DNA of 60,310 bases, the filler included, from Sphacelaria rigidula (Eukaryota): NCBI GenBank assembly GCA_964200075.2. It is 8 parts of 8 records of this genome, joined end to end, with 100 filler letters (N's around TTAATTAATTAA, not from the genome) between each part and the next. Parts side by side here need not be neighbours in the genome. Positions count along the whole stretch, not along the records: positions 52,861 to 60,310 come from CAXNAA020014862.1; 7 more parts are not named here. The stretch is one strand, 5' to 3'. This document shows positions 10,088 to 60,310 of this stretch, one piece after another. The position numbers were made by a program, and so were the translations under genes. Position 1 is the stretch's first letter. The number at the start of each line of letters is the position of its first letter. The notes beneath the pieces are model-generated. The model saw nothing but the letters and a program-made list of their open reading frames with translations. It did no database searches and had not been told where the DNA came from.

Positions 10088-11100
10088 CTAGGGACGAACC
10101 ATAAGATCCAAAGTCACCACCTGATGGCGCAGTGGAAGGAACAGCAGTGGAGAGACCACCATCCGCCGCCGATAGCTTGCTACTGCGGCCGCCGCCCCCG
10201 CGTCCTGGTTGGCACGGCCCCGTCCACCGTGACGACCGCCGCGAGATACTGATGAATCTCGCGCATTGCCCTGAGCAGCGCCTTGAGCGGGAGGTTTGGG
10301 GCAGTCCTTAATCAGGTGTCCGTTGTCAACGCAGTTGTAACACGCACGAGTGGACGATGCTCGAGAAGACGGCTGCTGTTTCTGCTGCTGTTGTGGTTTG
10401 CGGCGCGCACCAGCTGCATTTGCCGCAGTGTCGCGCCGACCATGCACCTCGATGAACTTCCAGTGGTCGGGGGCATCAACTATTTTGTTGAACACCACCG
10501 TCGGATCCTTTTCCCAACCATCTACATACGTTAGTACGCTTCTAACATACGCCTTGAATTCCGGAGGCGAAATTTCGCCCACCAAAGCTGTGGAAGCCGA
10601 CTCGGCGGGCCTGGCCACCAGCTGCTGTCCTCCGCACGTCATATGACTTGCACCGTCAGGTTTTCTGCGAAAAAAATCTTTCCATCGATGAATTCACCAT
10701 CATCGCACGATCCTTGACGGAGGTTCCACCGCTTTCTGGCATAGTAAGAAGTCTGCGTAGGTCTGCTGTAGCCTGCGCAGTGTCATGCTTGCCGCCGGTT
10801 GTGGTGTACTCGGCATGCTGCGTCACAGCATATAGCAATTCGTCGGGGGTCATAGCCCGACGGTCCTTGTACATGCCTTCAAAGCGCGGGTGAATATATG
10901 TTGGGATAAGCTGTCCGATGCTCACCCTGGCATGCCTCATGACTCCTTGTGCAATGGCCAAATCCAACCTCTCTAAATAGTCGAGATATTTGGCCCAAAA
11001 ACCTTTCGAGGCTTCCTCGGTCCACGCTTCGCCATACTTTGGCGGTTATAGTGGCTCATCTAACACCACCGGCGCTGCCGCCGCTTGAGCCGTGTCGTCT
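10088..11100 (-). pseudogene. Gag remnant with CCHC zinc knuckle
   Basis: CYNCVDNGHLIKDC fits C-x2-C-x4-H-x4-C; the upstream ORF 10656-10967 is continued by a frameshift. Confidence 0.85.
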
Positions 11101-52323: not shown

Positions 52324-55300
52324 GTACGGTGTGTGGGCTTTTACAGTGTACGGAATACGGCTTTTCCCGGCTTGGAGGCACATAGTTTTGTGTGAAAGTC
52401 GGCAATGTTTTACTCAGATGTTTTTTTCTACTACTTCTCGTGGGTCCTGTGCTTGATGTTGATTGCTTGGTCAGTTAGTTGGTTGGTTGATGGGTGGCTT
52501 CGAGCCGTGTGATTGGATGGTGAATCGGTTGATTGATTGGGTAGTGAAGCGGCTGGTTCATGCCTCGTTTGATTTGTTACTGATTGATCGGACACTTGGT
52601 TCATGGAATGATGGCTTGGTTGGCTGAAAATAATGGTCGGTTGGTTGTTCGGTTAGCTGGTGTATATGAAGTGATGGACCAGGAATCATCATCATCATAT
52701 ATTCAATGGTGTACTCATGATCATGCATGCCATAGTCATAAGACCATTGACCTCGCATCCNNNNNNNNNNNNNNNNNNNNNNNNNNNNNNNNNNNNNNNN
52801 NNNNTTAATTAATTAANNNNNNNNNNNNNNNNNNNNNNNNNNNNNNNNNNNNNNNNNNNNCTAGGTTTTATTTCAGCGTTGCAACCCAGGCACACGCAGC
52901 CCAGACACGTGGAATGGCGCAAAAGTTACGTGGATACCCCCTGGACCAGCGATGAACGTTGTTCTCCCTTTTGGGCAATCAAGTTCAAGAAATCGTGAAT
53001 TTTGTGATTTTGAGTCGTGATGATTTGTTCTACCCGTGGAACCTTTCCTGTTATGGATTTTGTCTATCTACGTGGATTATTGACGACTGAACATTTTGAA
53101 GCATTTTTTTCGGAACAAAATTGCCGATAACTCGCGGAGGAAAGAAGATAACACGTAGCAGGAAAGGTTCGGTATTCGCACACACGTCCTGTACATGATG
53201 TCAAAATTTCATCGAAAGCGATCCGAAATTGAGCGAAGAATATGCGTTTCAACATTCCTGGTGGCTTCTTGGGCGGCCCAGCTCGTACCACTACATAGTC
53301 AAGAACGGAGCATTCTCTCTTGTCTATGCGGTTTCTAACCCATGTCCATTGCGCCCCTGGCTTGACTACTCCATCCTTCAGCGTCTTCATCGTTCTTCAC
53401 GGGGGGCGGGTTGGAATAAAAATATTAAATGGCGATGGGTAGCCCCATCCCCTCCGCGGACAAGAGAGGGCTTCCTGCGCAGTCCTTTTTACTCTCGGCA
53501 CTGTTTGGCCCCCAAGAGCGCCCAAAAGTTCGTGAAAGTGGGTTGATGTGTTTTGCCAAGGTCATGGTCGTGTCCCCTTCGCGTCAGGATTAGATTTTGA
53601 TTGATTTACGAGGAGCACGGGCAGAGCCCGTACCTGTGTTTTGCCACTATCTCATCTGGGTTCAAAAGGGGGGGGTCGACCCACTTTCGTCTGTTGCCCT
53701 CCTTTTGTTGCCGTTAGAAGTTCAAGTCAACCGCTGTCCAGCCCACACGGTACCCTTTTTCTATCTCTAGTGGCCGAATATAACACACAGGAGAGATGAA
53801 GAAATAGCCAGATATTTATGAGTCCAGAAAATCTTGCCCAAACATCCGATGCAGGAAGATCTTGTTCTGTTCTGTCGTATATGTGGATAACTCATGCAAC
53901 ATAGATGATTATGTTATTCGTGCTCGCTTGCCCGGTGATATAAACGGAGCGCACGCCTGACAAGTGAGCGTGACCAACGCAATGCCGCCCGTCCAACGAT
54001 CAATGTTGCAGTGCGTCAAGTAGTTGTTTCACGCTCTTCGGTCTTGCGCTTGCTGCACAGATAGCGTGCGTTGCTCTGTGACTACGTGCAGCGTAGTAAT
54101 ATGTTGTGTACTCAACACTATACAGTTTGTGCATTTCCGTTATATTTCAGTTCAAGGTCAGCACAGCATAAACGCGCCGACGTCACAGAGTACCCTGTCA
54201 AGAATGATGCATGTGGCGATGATGTGTAGGCTAACCAATGCAGCTTATGAACATCACCGATAGCCACGACATAGCACAGTGCGGCAGCAGATTCATATAT
54301 CCCGACGAAGAATATTATAGGCCTTTGTGTACGCAAGCTCTTGTGAAACCCATCTTATACGATGAGGAATCACGTTTAGTACAATCGCTCGAAAAACATG
54401 GAGTTGCGGGAACCAAATACTTCCTGTCCACGCCACAGCGCAGCTGATAAAAGCTTCTATGGACACACTTTACCGCCGATGCACCGACCGTGTTCCGATA
54501 AAATCTCGGAGTTGCTTTGTCCGTCCAGGATACTCTTGTGGCTGCAATACGTTTGCCGACGATGTTCGGGACACAGCCGACAATTTGTGCAGCCATGAAT
54601 GCAGGAGGAAGGTGAAAACAAGAAGCTGGCGCGAACCATGCTCCCACAGATGCCTTGGCACGGCGGCGCGCACCTTCCGAACCTTTGCCTACGGGTACCG
54701 ATAAAGAACCGTGTTCCCGCAGTGCGTCTCGGCGTTTTCGTAGCATATGGTGCCATGTAGATGGAGTGTGCATCGAAACGATGATGGCATATCTTATCGC
54801 TGTATTACTCTTGATTGAACCTACTGTATAGTTTCTCTTTCAGTTCTGGTCTCCACCACAGCGGCAAGTCTTTCAACATTCGGGGAGGAACAACAAATCT
54901 TGCAAGGGAGCGGACGCATTCGTTGCACAAGTAAAACACTGGTGAAACTTTCACGGAGGCCGCAGAGTGATGCTGATAGCACGGAATCACCTGAATGAGT
55001 TTTCGCTCAGCGAGTGAAAATCTTGCCACAGCTGATTTGATCGAAAACCTTTTAGCACATCCTTGGCCGTGTGACGTGGGCGTCGATTTCTAGACGAACC
55101 TCGTTCTGTATCGTCATTGTTCTCACGGAGTTCCCAACACAGATCAGCAGCTGATACTCTGTAGCGGCTTAAAGAGCCGTAGCGACACACAGAGCCACCG
55201 CAATAATGCCGGCGGTACATCAGATACACGCCCGCTTTCGAGTCGTCCCGTCCAAGAGTTCAACATCGCCGTGACCCCTCTCCTAAGCCATATACGACCC

Positions 55301-55922
55301 GTGTATTTTTGCAGGCGTTGTTTAAAAGAAGAGCTGCCCACCCCCCTCGACACGCGCCCGTTCGATGCTCACCACTGTGTATTGCGTGTGTGATGCTGCA
55401 TAGCGATCGCTGAGTCTTTCGGTGATGTTGCTTGGCTATTCATTTTGCACAAAGATTTGTAGCTGGCTCGTCCTGTCTGACGTACAAACCCTGTCTTTTT
55501 TATTGAATACATCAGAGTCAGATATATTTGATACGGCTGAGCATGCTTTAGCGTTGGCGCTGCGTTCCACATGTTTTGTGCAGTGACCGTCCTGCTATTG
55601 TTCTATACTGAAACTCCATCCGCTCCCGATCCCTTCCGCCATTGTGTAGAGAACGTCTCGTTTCTTGGAATCATTTTGCGAGTGTCTTTGTAATTATCGG
55701 GGTCAGCCCGCGTGGAGCGTCGTTTGCGTTGACTGCAGGCGGCTACATTTTCCCCAGAGTATGTGCCGTAAAATCAACACCACTTGTTTTGCAAATCGTT
55801 TCTACTCACTTTCACCCGCGGCTCACGAGGTATGTTCTGCCGTCTTGGTATTTGTGCTTCCGTGAACACCTAGTTTTCAAGGGAGCACAACACAAGAACC
55901 CGGTGGTCGACGTAGCCAAAAC

Positions 55923-57863
55923 GTGTGCATCACAAAAAGCTGCTCCAAGCACGCCAGGGTGGAAATGGTGGATGTGGTGAACAAGAACTGCGGCGACGAG
56001 GGTTGCTCCAGGAATCCGTCGTATAGTGTAGCAGGAAGTAGGGAGGCGGAGTTGTGCTCCAAGAATGCAAGGTCGGGGATGGTGAATGAAGTGCAGAAAA
56101 AATGCGGCTACGAGGGCTGCTCCACAAGGCCGTCGTATGGTGTGGCGGGAAGTAAAAAGGCGGAGTTCTGCTCCAAGCATGCGAGGTTGGGAATGGTGAA
56201 TGTAGTGCACAAGAAGTGCGGCTACGAGGGCTGCTCCACAAGGCCGTCGTATGGTGTGGCAGGAGGCAAGAAGGCGGAGTTCTGTTCCAAGCATGCGAGA
56301 TTGGGAATGGTGGATGTAGCGAACAAGAAGTGCGGCTTCGAGAGCTGCTCCATGCATCCGTCGTACGGTGTAGCGGGAAGTAACAGGGCGGAGTTCTGCT
56401 CGAAGCATGCAAGGTCGGGAATGGTGAATGTGGTGCTCAAGAAGTGCGGCCACGAGGGCTGCTCCACGAAGCCATCGTATGGTGTGGCGGGAGGCAAGAA
56501 AGCGGAGTTCTGCTCGAAGCATGCCAAGGCGGGAATGGCGGATGTGGTGAGCAAGAAGTGCGGCTACAGGGATTGCTGCACGCTTCCATCGTTTGGTGTA
56601 GCGGGAAGTAACAGGGCGGAGTTTTGCTCCAAGCATGCCAGGGCGGGAATGGTGAATGTGGTGAACAAGAACTGCGGCCACGAGGGCTGCTCCACGAATC
56701 CATCGTATGGTGTGGCGGGAAGCAAGGCGGAGTTTTGCTTCAAGCATGCAAGGTCGGGAATGGTGAATGTGGTGAAGAAGCAGTGCGGCTACAAGGGCTG
56801 CTCCACAAAGCCGTCGTACGGTTTGGCGGGAGGCAAGAAGGCAGAGTTTTGCTCCAAGCATGCAAGGTCGGGAATGGTGGATGTGGTGCACAAGAAATGC
56901 GGCTACAAGGGCTGCTCCACGAAGCCGTCGTATGGTATAGCGGGAAGCAAGAAGGCAGAGTTCTGCTTCAAGCACGCGAGGTCGGGAATGGTACATGTGG
57001 TCCTGAAGAAGTGCGGTTACGAAGCCTGCTCCACGAATCCGTCGTACGGCGTGGCGGGAAGTAACAGGGCCGAGTTCTGCTCGAAGCATGCCAAGGCGGG
57101 AATGGTGGATGTGGTGAGCAAGAAGTGCAGGTACGAGGGCTGCTCCACGAATCCGTCGTATGGTGTGGCGGGAAGCAAGAAGGCGGAGTTCTGCTCCAAG
57201 CATGCACGGTCGGGAATGGTGAACGTGGCGAAGAAGCAGTGCGGCTACGAGGGCTGCTCCACAAAGCCGTCGTATGGTGTGGCGGGAAGCAAGAAGGCGG
57301 AGTTCTGCTCCAAGCATGCAAGGTCAGGAATGGTGGATGTGGTGCACAAGAAATGCGGCTACAAGGGCTGCTCCACGCATCCGTCGTACGGCGTGGCGAG
57401 AAGTAACAGGGCCGAGTTCTGCTCGAAGCATTTCAGGTCTGGAATGGTGAACGTGGTGAACAAGAAGTGCGGCTACGAGGGCTGCTTCACAAAGCCGTCG
57501 TATGGTGTGGCGGGAAGTAAAAGGGCGGAGTTTTGCTCCAAGCATACCAGGGCGGGAATGGTGAACGTGGTGAGCGGGAAGGGCGGTGAAGAGAAGTGGT
57601 TCGAAGTGATTGTCGAAGAGAGGCACACCGTTGATGAGGCAATGGTGTGCCTACAACATACCTCTGCACACAGTTCAGCTGCGGCGTCCGACACCGCGAG
57701 AGTCTACACTGGGGAGGGCATCCCCGTGCGTAGCCCAACAAAGGATGACGGAGGAAGCGTTGCTTATTTACGAGGAACAAAACGCAAGCGCGCAGGATTC
57801 GCGGGTTCTGTTGCAAGCGACGGTGTTGGTGCTCGCTTGACTGCGTTCGCCGGTCCCAGGTAG
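55923..57863 (+). CDS. EsV-1-7 cysteine-rich repeat protein with 14 tandem 38-aa units (C-x4-C-x16-C-x2-H) and a low-complexity C-terminus; true start uncertain
   Basis: Uninterrupted 646-codon ORF with consensus KKCGYEGCSTKPSYGVAGSKKAEFCSKHARSGMVNVV at 114-bp periodicity, matching the EsV-1-7 motif family of brown algae. The ORF opens at a GTG, and a candidate acceptor lies at 55872-55873. Confidence 0.93.
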   Translation: MCITKSCSKHARVEMVDVVNKNCGDEGCSRNPSYSVAGSREAELCSKNARSGMVNEVQKKCGYEGCSTRPSYGVAGSKKAEFCSKHARLGMVNVVHKKCGYEGCSTRPSYGVAGGKKAEFCSKHARLGMVDVANKKCGFESCSMHPSYGVAGSNRAEFCSKHARSGMVNVVLKKCGHEGCSTKPSYGVAGGKKAEFCSKHAKAGMADVVSKKCGYRDCCTLPSFGVAGSNRAEFCSKHARAGMVNVVNKNCGHEGCSTNPSYGVAGSKAEFCFKHARSGMVNVVKKQCGYKGCSTKPSYGLAGGKKAEFCSKHARSGMVDVVHKKCGYKGCSTKPSYGIAGSKKAEFCFKHARSGMVHVVLKKCGYEACSTNPSYGVAGSNRAEFCSKHAKAGMVDVVSKKCRYEGCSTNPSYGVAGSKKAEFCSKHARSGMVNVAKKQCGYEGCSTKPSYGVAGSKKAEFCSKHARSGMVDVVHKKCGYKGCSTHPSYGVARSNRAEFCSKHFRSGMVNVVNKKCGYEGCFTKPSYGVAGSKRAEFCSKHTRAGMVNVVSGKGGEEKWFEVIVEERHTVDEAMVCLQHTSAHSSAAASDTARVYTGEGIPVRSPTKDDGGSVAYLRGTKRKRAGFAGSVASDGVGARLTAFAGPR

Positions 57864-58739
57864 GTTGTAAGAACGAGACATCCAGCTTCAAGGGCTGGTG
57901 AAATGTTTTCAGAGGCGAGTGCAAGGGATTGAATGAGGGTAGAGCTGGCAGTTCGTCCTGCTACACACGGTGAGGATAGGGGCAGGGAGGGTCGCAAGCA
58001 GCCTGCTCGTTTGTGTGGTTGGAGCAAGGAAGGTCGTGGTAGTAGCATCACCGGCATCAGTGCTGTGAGTTCGGGGCGGCTTTGTGGTTCGCCGGCGTTG
58101 GCACGTGAACGCCTGGGCACGTTTCATGTGGGCGTTCAAGAGGCAGAGGAGAACTCGAACGTGAAGTTGGAACTAGGAGGGTCTGGCCCCTCTCCTCGGG
58201 CATACGATACATTGTAGGTGACACTCTTTTCCCTTACCCATCTCGTTGCTCAGATAAGCTGAGGAGTGTGTTGGCGTGTGCTCGCGTATTTTGTCAGCGG
58301 TCTCAAACGACGATTAGTCGGTAGGGTTGATTTCATTCTCTTCAGGCGAAGCAGTCCGTGGGACGGTGGGGTCCGGACATCTCAGCGCCACGTTCCACCA
58401 GTTTCGTTGAGGTGCGGTTGTCGTACTTGCGTTGGTAGTGTGCGTAAGTGGAAATCTACTAAGGGCTGGCCATTAGTGCATACACCGTAGTAGTCAGCAA
58501 CGGATAAACTATGACACGACATTTCGACTTCCAACTCCTAATTTCTCCCAACTCTTTCCGACTGGGGCTATACTTGCTCATCACACTTGTTCATCTTGCA
58601 ACAGCCTCCAACAACTTGTAGCCAGACGGAGTGTCCAGCATTCGTTTCTTGCAAGTTTTACTCGCTCTCACTTGACCAATGTTTTAAATGTGTTGTTTCT
58701 GCCTGTAAAAGTGTCGTGTGCTTACAGCTAAACACCATG

Positions 58740-59276
58740 CTTCCTCTGCCCCATAAGTAAAGGTACCTAAATTTGTACGGGCCCCCGACGATGTACCATC
58801 GTCTTTTTTTTTTATGAACTCTCCGGCGTTATTTGGGTTAAGAAAATGTGTTTGGAATTTGCAGCTCGTGCTTGAACTATGCCGCCGAACGGCTGCAATA
58901 AAAGTAATCGGCCCAAAAATGGCCGTTTTTTGCCCCTTTCCGAGGGGGAAAAAGTGTCGATTTTTTTCTTGATTTTTTTCAATCGCCCCCGCCTTCACTG
59001 GGGCTTGCTGCCAGAAGTCCCACGCGACTGAAGAAAATTCGAAAAAAAAATCCCGACACCTTTTTTCCCCTCGGAAAGGGGCAAAAAACGTCCATTTTCG
59101 AGCTGACTACTTTTTTTGCAGCCGTTCGGCGGCATGGTTCAAGCACTAGCTGCAAATTTTAAACACATTTTCTTGACCTAAATAACACCGGAGATTTTAT
59201 AAAAAAGAAAAAAACGATCGGACATCGTTGGGGGCCCGAACAAATTTAGGTACCTTTACTTATGGTACAGAGGAAG
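58740..59276. mobile_element. Stowaway/Tc1-mariner-like foldback MITE (537 bp, ~245-bp arms)
   Basis: The arms are reverse complements along nearly their full length, with termini cttcctctg.../...cagaggaag. The flanks are TG (left) and TA (right), consistent with a mutated TA TSD. Confidence 0.88.
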
Positions 59277-60310
59277 TACAGTTCTATAAACTGTGATTTT
59301 GCACTCAAGTGAGGTTCAAGCCCAAAGCAGTGCTTTCACCACACTCGAAGTGATGGTGGGCAATGACGTTTTTGTCGCCTCAATGCCCCTAGATCGCGTT
59401 CAAACTTTTTCAGCGCCTTTTACCAACTCTGTGAGCTTTCGAACCATTTCTGCGTCCGTTCGGACACCCGGAATTCCCCAAAATTGCTTTTTCACCTAGG
59501 TCCCCAACATTTCGGTGATCAAAATCCAAATGTTTATGGCGTGTAGCAGTCGTCAAAAGCTATTAGTAGGTGAAGAAATTAGACAGTATTTCGATGATTT
59601 GGTGTGGATACGAAGATTTGAATCCTCCGAGATTCTCATCCCAATAAAAGATCTATCCCCAATTTGTAAGATCCCGTGTTCGTTGCTGGTGCCTACCTAG
59701 TATCATCCTCTAAATCGAAGTCTTGAGTGAGAAAGCTCAGCGTGCAGCTGCTTGACGTGGCCACTGCCTTCTGCCACGTGTCCTTCTCCACGTACCCGAC
59801 AAGGGGGCAACATCCCCGCACAGGCAGGAGCAATACTAGCGGATCCTACGTCCTGACAGTCTTGCAGCCGGTAAGGTGGTTATGGTAGTGTCCTTCTAGC
59901 GATATCAACTTGCAGTCAGTGTTGCGCCAAAACAAAAAAAAAGTCAACTATGTGCCGATTTTCGCGTACAAGAGTCATCATATAAAATATCAGCTCAGAG
60001 GATCCCCGAAGGAGGTATAAACCACACGAGCCAGAAGCTCCTTGGGAAGAACCCACGACCCAACACGCGGCATATCTTAAAAGCTATGTTTATGGCTGTG
60101 GATTGTCGGCGCAAGTTGCAGGCTGAAAACGTGATGATGTCCCGTGTTCGGTGGTGTGCATGGTGTTGCTCGGTACGGGTGCCTTGCGTGCTCTATGGTA
60201 CGCCGATAGGTGGCGGCCACGGTTCGCGTTCCCACCAGTCACCACGCCTACGAGCTGGGCCAGCCTAGAGGCTCCATGAAAGTTTGCAGGCGGATGCGCC
60301 GGCCAATATT

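Follow-up and report, generated by a model that had tools for sequence, protein, structure and literature searches.

Can a tandem array of small zinc-finger-like units in a brown alga read nucleic acid one unit at a time? The question is raised by a gene of Sphacelaria rigidula (assembly GCA_964200075.2) at positions 55923-57863 of the stretch of DNA that we analysed, 60,310 nucleotides in all and hereafter called the window. All positions given here are those of this whole stretch. The gene encodes 14 tandem units of the EsV-1-7 type. A preliminary description, made from the sequence, had proposed that residues varying at fixed places in the unit form a modular recognition code, like that of transcription activator-like effectors (TALEs) or C2H2 zinc fingers. 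We find that the gene is a long, otherwise ordinary member of the EsV-1-7 family, previously undescribed, and there is no evidence that the two most variable positions of the unit, 9 and 36, form a per-unit recognition code. The proposed interpretation therefore survives in part: the family assignment was right and nucleic-acid binding by the array is plausible, but the position-specific code is not supported. The reading that we favour, with somewhat better than even confidence, is that the array is a multivalent nucleic-acid binder and nuclear regulator without a per-unit code.

The array gene and its family

The units were framed as C-x4-C-x16-C-x2-H-x12, with the first cysteine as position 1. 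Macaisne et al. reportedly gave this same formula for the repeat motif in 2017. Framed in this way, the open reading frame (ORF) is composed as follows.

55923..57863, plus strand: ORF with array and tail, 646 codons, ending in TAG at 57861-57863
55923..55988, plus strand: degenerate N-terminal half unit before unit 1, in translation C-x4-C-S-K-H and then a 12-residue linker
55989..57581, plus strand: 14 tandem EsV-1-7 units, 114 nt each save unit 7 (56673-56783, 111 nt)

The assignment to the EsV-1-7 family holds. Pfam profile PF19114 (EsV_1_7_cys) matches the array protein in 14 stretches, with 709.7 bits (cut-off 25) and an E of 1.6e-219, and the relatives belong to brown algae and giant viruses, EsV-1-7 itself (Q8QNQ2) among them. 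Tandem Repeats Finder reports a single array at 55940-57573, with a period of 114, 14.4 copies, 82% matches and a score of 2058. Unit starts run from 55989 in steps of 114 nt to 56673 (unit 7), and again from 56784 (unit 8) in steps of 114 nt to 57468 (unit 14). The repeat search, the Pfam match and the framing thus all confirm the array of 14 tandem 38-residue units that had been described, except that unit 7 has only 37 residues, with a codon missing at K18/K19. An apparent fifteenth CSKH with its linker is the terminal part of unit 14. The reading frame is open from 55866, and its earliest ATG lies at 55965 (the M of ...VEMVDVV...).

Twelve of the 14 units fit the formula exactly. The exceptions are unit 7, which has x15, and unit 1, which reads CSKN, an asparagine replacing the histidine at 56064-56066. 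Eleven of the 38 unit positions are invariant (C1, C6, P10, S11, A15, A20, E21, C23, K25, G30 and M31). These include the cysteines C1/C6/C23 and the pairs P10-S11, A20-E21 and G30-M31, all of which had been called invariant; the histidine had been so called as well, but it is kept in 13 of 14 units. Units 11 and 13 have arginine at conserved glycine positions. The array is strongly basic, with 90 lysines and arginines against 33 aspartates and glutamates, a net charge of +57 and a pI of 9.5. An antisense ORF of 501 amino acids (55812-57317, minus strand) crosses the array. This ORF is most likely a by-product of a repeating unit without stops in that frame, and it makes ORF length weak evidence inside repeats.

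At E<=0.001, 273 relatives are near the array protein in length, 288 are shorter and 6 are longer. The best are S. rigidula proteins, P0001 (71% identity over 57% of the query) and P0005 (75% over 39%), both of which share the tail of the array gene. Further relatives are proteins of Ectocarpus, Pylaiella, Scytosiphon and Ascophyllum, of TetV, and many metagenomic and giant-virus proteins. A Foldseek search against viral models returned 29 matches at E<=0.001, with EsV-1-7 (Q8QNQ2) at 7.8e-26; they include marseillevirus, pithovirus and klosneuvirus proteins, and four carry the UniProt name 'Endonuclease'. The array gene is an unusually long family member. By a relaxed pattern it has 13 units, against a maximum of 12 among 240 listed near-length and shorter relatives, the 6 relatives longer than 1131 aa being left out. 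Fusions seen in the 6 longer relatives (USP, EF-hand, reverse transcriptase and the RNA-dependent RNA polymerase domain RdRP) were set aside as too few, and they may be gene-model artefacts.

The family as a whole is large. The accessible part of the Phaeoexplorer preprint counts 2,018 members across 31 genomes. A 2026 preprint, in its accessible part, describes the family as the largest brown-algal orthogroup and its Ectocarpus members as all lacking any other Pfam domain. Among the members, as the accessible literature has it, is the Ectocarpus developmental regulator IMMEDIATE UPRIGHT (IMM). The array gene shares with the family (EsV-1 gene 7, IMM and about 2,000 brown-algal genes) the 38-aa tandem unit, the basic character and the absence of another Pfam domain. 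It differs in its tail, which belongs to a subfamily common to S. rigidula and is cut by two in-frame stops, and it lacks the N-terminal domain that the accessible literature gives as specific to IMM. The accessible literature on the family describes no defined ligand for the repeats, in agreement with the preliminary description. It already contains nucleic-acid binding by EsV-1-7 repeats as a published hypothesis, and in those same parts a per-unit code is not proposed.

Variable positions and the recognition code

The residues on which the code was proposed had been read correctly. The dipeptides before the invariant proline (RN, TR, TR, MH, TK, TL, TN, TK, TK, TN, TN, TK, TH, TK), the set Q/H/N/L/S/K at the linker residue, and the triplet SNR in units 4, 6, 10 and 13 with H, L, N and H at the pre-proline site all proved exact on re-reading. 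The further claim, that variation is concentrated at a few fixed positions, stands in one respect. Per-position entropy in the array is highest at position 36 (2.50 bits) and position 9 (2.12 bits), followed by 29, 19, 3, 33 and 18. The 83 non-consensus residues, 11 of them at position 36 and 9 at position 9 against a mean of 2.18 per position, depart from a uniform spread (chi-square p 8e-10). However, the variation is graded over 27 of the 38 positions. Of the summed entropy, 20% falls on positions 9 and 36, and 31% if positions 18 and 19 are counted too. Non-uniform variation is expected of any folded domain.

Nor are the peaks peculiar to this array. A family profile was made from 590 strict units of 120 listed near-length relatives, with entropy averaged over the 54 that have at least 6 units. 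The highest mean within-array entropies are at positions 9, 36 and 35, with 9 and 36 ranking first and second, and the profile of the array follows that of the family (Spearman 0.51, p 0.0009). Profiles were also made separately for arrays with the viral C-terminal domain described below (35 proteins) and for arrays without it (103 proteins). Positions 9 and 36 are in the top three in both sets, and the two profiles agree closely (Spearman 0.86). The top entropies form a plateau and not a spike, running from 1.73 to 1.47 bits with the viral domain and from 1.75 to 1.27 bits without it. Family-wide, the weakest constraint in the unit falls on 9 and 36, which are loop or linker positions.

A residue that sets specificity should stay the same in the same unit of related proteins yet differ between units. 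This is the rationale of a collinear-unit test, for which 24 non-overlapping pairs at 65-93% identity were drawn from the 240 relatives, with pairs above 93% left out. Six pairs had fewer than 2 collinear strict units and were dropped, which left 18 pairs with 68 collinear unit pairs. The residue at position 9 is different in 38% of the collinear and 81% of the non-collinear unit pairs, a ratio of 0.47 against 0.47 at other sites (bootstrap confidence interval of the difference -0.15 to 0.15), in pairs that may include paralogues with different targets. For position 36, with the same proviso about paralogues, 47% of the collinear and 85% of the non-collinear unit pairs differ, so that the ratio is 0.55, with 0.46 at other sites (interval -0.03 to 0.19). 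Neither position has excess unit-specific conservation in these 18 pairs, a result that is weak against a fast-evolving code if paralogues differ in target. A sign of such conservation at position 9 in a set of 7 pairs and 29 unit pairs (5 of 29 differing) was lost with 18 pairs and 68 unit pairs.

Codons and linkage were considered next to these profiles. Between units, over all pairs, the proportion of synonymous differences (pS) is 0.33 and that of nonsynonymous differences (pN) is 0.125, with a dN/dS ratio of 0.31. With positions 9, 18, 19 and 36 left out, pN/pS is 0.27. At codons 9 and 36 pN is 0.52. The first two bases of codon 9, with diversities of 0.36 and 0.38, are roughly on a par with five four-fold sites (mean 0.25, range 0-0.48). 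From these codons, position 9 looks to be evolving as if unconstrained. The co-occurrence of SNR with a non-basic residue at position 9 gives a table of 4/0 versus 3/7 (one-sided Fisher p 0.035). Two synonymous markers, TAC at codon 12 and TCG at codon 24, are common to units 4, 10 and 13 alone of the four SNR units, with a distribution of 3/1 versus 1/9 for either marker (p 0.041). This sharing points to joint inheritance of the coupled residues within one central block, so the four cases are not independent. The SNR units were also considered as a clade. This was rejected: with codons 9, 18 and 19 removed they are no closer to one another overall, since 260 of the 1001 sets of four units do equally well.

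The array resembles C2H2 and TALE arrays in having tandem, near-identical small units whose variation peaks at fixed positions. It differs from them in ligand spacing, in a predicted all-beta fold without a recognition helix, and in lacking both a homogenised backbone and any detected unit-specific conservation of its variable sites. The uniform repeat with a few hypervariable residues, a trait of TALE, C2H2 and pentatricopeptide repeat (PPR) arrays, is not what the variable positions and the pS show here. Such a high pS between units means that there is no hypervariable pair on a homogenised backbone, as there is in TALEs. A check of per-site entropy and dN/dS across paralogues had been suggested for the code. 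Positions 9 and 36 do come out as the most variable, but they do so family-wide. The family profile, the collinear units, the codons and the SNR linkage, four tests in all, give no support to a position-specific code of the TALE or zinc-finger kind.

Giant-virus fusions and the predicted fold

The EsV-1-7 repeat is also found joined to other domains. According to the accessible part of a Genome Biology paper (PMC12477816), the Tc1/mariner transposase TcMar-2_Ec32 bears an N-terminal EsV-1-7 domain. Among ten viral loci, nine (L001-L007, L009 and L010) encode an EsV-1-7 array and then a conserved C-terminal domain of about 180 aa. The nine have 1-8 pattern-matched units, and 3-9 Pfam stretches in the seven that were scanned; L009 and L010 are the same. 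Both motifs of the viral C-terminal domain are present in 24 of 246 relatives, and the domain itself matches 3,894 representative clusters at E<=0.001; a limit of E<=1e-30 leaves 461 of them. We scanned for upstream domains in the first 100 of 150 listed representatives of it (P0247-P0396). PF19114 lies upstream in 66 of the 100, nothing recognisable in 30, and an amidase match in 1. In P0341 a classical C2H2 array takes the place of the EsV-1-7 array, and in P0301 and P0283 single C2H2-type or C2HC-type fingers do so. P0317 has an additional N-terminal Viral_Rep domain. The close relatives L004, L006 and L007 have 7, 7 and 3 units before a nearly identical C-terminal domain, which points to gain or loss of whole units within one lineage.

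The viral C-terminal domain is probably a PD-(D/E)xK nuclease of the Vsr-like kind, judging from its invariant residues (D, E-x-D-E-x-x-H, R and R-F-N-P-D). REase_MTES_1575 is among its sub-threshold matches. Pfam finds nothing on the C-terminal domain at E<=1 in 8 whole viral proteins, PHROGs returns families of unknown function only, and there is no match among 50,697 phage records. In a protein atlas the domain falls into Nucleocytoviricota clusters without a name and into a single cluster with the automatic name 'Endonuclease (Fragment)'. The viral array proteins have a layout comparable to that of I-Bth0305I, which the accessible part of PMC3239194 describes as a Vsr-like EDxHD homing endonuclease with an N-terminal DNA-binding region and a C-terminal nuclease; for the viral proteins we infer the nuclease, their domain having no significant match. 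The array gene has the same repeat unit as these viral proteins and lacks their C-terminal domain, so the argument from fusions bears on the repeat family and not on the array gene. Taken together, the transposase and putative nuclease fusions suggest that the EsV-1-7 repeat serves as a module for targeting DNA; a code does not follow from them.

Units 8-13 (56784-57467) were modelled with AlphaFold2 on alignments of relatives. The mean predicted local distance difference test score (pLDDT) is 91.7 and the predicted template modelling score (pTM) 0.57; a two-unit piece has a pLDDT of 86.0. Strands are modelled at unit positions 12-14 and 31-33, a recurrence every 19 residues, and in these models the 38-aa unit looks like two similar halves, both made of a knuckle and a strand. 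In this view the variable sites 9 and 17/18 of the first half correspond to 29 and 36, respectively, of the second.

We then compared the models with known structures. For the six-unit model, VIA-align in its wide setting gives a single chain at Z>=2, namely 2yhn_A (Z 2.3, root-mean-square deviation (rmsd) 4.2, 49 aligned residues). For the two-unit model it gives 10 chains at Z>=2, all of them RING, with Z 2.1-3.7 and 2yhn_A again the best. Foldseek rows against the PDB at E 1.2-10 include LIM, PHD/PZP and B-box entries. All these structural matches are under the tool's level for meaningful likeness, and no family is excludable from them. A PDB sequence search with the whole array protein returned one chance-level row (E 0.096). 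The WRKY19-type finger of land plants, PF24906, is matched weakly or below threshold by several relatives on the C-x4-C knuckle, for example by P0016 (E 9.8e-09). The array protein itself has no match to it at E<=0.1, and its profile of 24 positions covers part of the unit.

The tail, its in-frame stops and the rival readings

Beyond the array, the gene carries a tail that is shared with its paralogues and interrupted by stops.

57582..57860, plus strand: non-repeat tail of 93 residues, common to S. rigidula paralogues (GKGGEE.WFE...), neutral, pI 7.0
57771..57794, plus strand: basic motif RGTKRKRA, found by motif search in 7 of 12 S. rigidula relatives checked
57861..57863, plus strand: in-frame TAG, where P0001 and P0005 read Gln (...AGPRQ...)
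57930..57932, plus strand: in-frame TGA, where P0001 and P0005 read Trp (...DWMKVELAV...)
57933..58217, plus strand: downstream ORF of 94 aa in the same frame, matching the C-terminal ends of paralogues (MKVELAV...SNVKLELG..GPSPR.YD)

RGTKRKRA looks like a nuclear localisation signal. The downstream ORF, in which Pfam finds no family, either represents the truncated terminus of the gene or remains connected to it somehow. A contig of run X8 spans 57771-57904 with zero differing letters, so an assembly error confined to this record does not explain the first stop. Divergence from the paralogues is no greater past the stops than before them, which implies that the stops are recent or bypassed. 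This copy may be a truncated allele or a young pseudogene, or it may be rescued in some way. A GT..AG intron at 57860-57937 (78 nt), which would skip both stops in frame, was rejected: it has no pyrimidine tract, and the paralogues read the stretch as coding.

Contigs of three runs, whose RNA origin is a guess, span 55,940-58,628; such contigs are silent on level, ends and strand. In runs X6 and X7 contigs match from 55871 on, with unmatched and mutually different sequence before it. Either splicing to an exon further upstream or a contig from a paralogue could explain this break. Since the loose ends differ and may come from paralogues, we claim no upstream exon. Most contig joints listed have sides of 20-28 letters that lie within the repeat, and these were taken as repeat artefacts.

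How would the array act? In the reading that we favour, each 38-aa unit is predicted to bind one zinc ion through C1, C6, C23 and H26 and would fold into a small beta-rich module. The 14 modules would line up like very basic beads on a string, and behind them comes the tail, whose KRKR motif resembles a nuclear signal. The array would then act as a nuclear regulator that binds nucleic acid, probably DNA or chromatin, in a multivalent manner. That the array protein binds zinc and DNA and resides in the nucleus is in each case inferred. Nucleic-acid binding is plausible because of the charge of +57, the RGTKRKRA motif, the transposase fusion, the fusions to the putative viral nuclease and the replacement of the array by C2H2 fingers.

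Several observations weigh against this multivalent, code-free nucleic-acid binder. The models contain no recognition helix, indeed no helix of at least 4 residues, only a three-residue turn at 62-64 of the six-unit model. Foldseek against the PDB gives 0 matches at E<=0.001 (best E 1.2), and the best structural likeness (2yhn_A, Z 3.7, rmsd 3.3, 45 residues) is to a RING, a protein-binding module. The putative nuclease identity of the viral domain depends on its invariant pattern and on matches below threshold, namely Pfam Hjc in 3 of 19 members (best E 0.012), PADLOC mREase_II in 1 of 19 (E 0.0026) and NCBIfam Hjc in 1 of 4 (E 0.093). When the PDB was searched with the viral domain, by sequence and by profile, the sole match was to an A20-type finger (E 0.78); neither 3r3p nor any nuclease came up. 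The tail of the array gene has neither motif of that domain and resembles other S. rigidula tails. At codon 36 the first two bases have diversities of 0.53 and 0.56, above the mean of the five four-fold sites (0.25). Diversifying selection might thus act at position 36, for which a single codon is insufficient evidence. Finally, the gene may be decaying, to judge from the two stops in its tail relative to the paralogues and the lost histidine of unit 1.

The rival readings divide this evidence differently. A modular, reprogrammable reader, in which each unit is a fixed sequence step and positions 9, 18-19 and 36 are the specificity code, seems to us improbable. It would account for variability that peaks at 36 and 9 here and across the family, virus arrays before a probable nuclease included, for a pN at codons 9 and 36 that exceeds the overall pS, and for the codon 36 diversity above the four-fold sites. 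Shifts in unit number between the close viruses L004, L006 and L007, and C2H2 arrays holding the same place in sister viral proteins, also fit such a reader. It is opposed by the collinear ratios for positions 9 and 36, in a test that paralogues make weak, and by the graded variation, of which positions 9 and 36 hold only a fifth. The pS between units is unlike that of TALE repeats, and SNR travels with synonymous markers (codons 12 and 24; units 4, 10 and 13) in a manner that fits block descent. A scaffold for proteins or another non-nucleic-acid ligand, similar to LIM, RING or A20 modules, is in our view rather unlikely. The sole structural likenesses, all weak, are to protein-binding zinc modules (RING, LIM, PHD/PZP and B-box), the models offer no helix long enough to enter a DNA groove, and the Ectocarpus members, in the accessible part of the 2026 preprint, have no other Pfam domain. 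Yet these likenesses all fall below the tool's meaningful level, the array is strongly basic with KRKR in its tail, and the repeat is fused to DNA-acting enzymes (the transposase and the probable giant-virus nuclease) and is positionally interchangeable with C2H2 fingers.

It is likewise rather unlikely that this copy is a decaying or truncated paralogue whose variation comes from relaxed constraint after duplication. TAG at 57861 and TGA at 57930 stand where P0001 and P0005 have Q and W, with the last 94 codons recognisable downstream. Unit 1 has lost its histidine, unit 7 a codon, and units 11 and 13 carry arginine at conserved glycines; the long open frame is weak evidence in a repeat whose antisense strand is also open for 501 aa. 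Against decay stand the dN/dS of 0.31 between units, with 0.27 outside positions 9, 18, 19 and 36, and 1.9 kb without a frameshift or stop. Moreover, the truncated protein retains the entire array and the KRKR motif, and the sequence beyond the stops is at least as close to the paralogues as the sequence ahead of them.

A broader form of the idea would make EsV-1-7 arrays a third natural class of modular DNA reader beside C2H2 fingers and TALEs, in which every 38-aa zinc module would touch a fixed step of DNA with its variable loops at 9, 29 and 35-36, and viruses would use them to aim a Vsr-like nuclease. We regard this as a long shot. If it were true, the giant-virus arrays with their Vsr-like nuclease would be natural counterparts of zinc-finger nucleases. 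Brown algae would reuse the module as their largest family of array-type transcription regulators, with the 14-unit gene among the longest. On any reading, the array gene offers a long, clean array for binding tests, in a family that includes IMM and for which the accessible literature gives no ligand. The more useful lead is in the viruses, where thousands of proteins place the repeat before a probable nuclease and a few have C2H2 fingers instead. There the hypothesis of DNA binding is testable by mapping cleavage sites.

The window holds few long ORFs. Pfam, run on 21 of the 23 ORFs in the window that have at least 150 aa or are neighbours, gave one match.

10088-10642, minus strand: ORF with a CCHC zinc knuckle (PF00098, E 7.7e-05)

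This ORF is likely a retroelement gag remnant. Among the window ORFs scanned with Pfam there is no sign of an intact viral insert. In DNA run X1 the summed contig depth reaches 23,000-84,000 at 53000-53433 and 58642-59500, against about 65-75 for single-copy sequence nearby, which indicates that high-copy repeats, probably transposons, flank the array gene.

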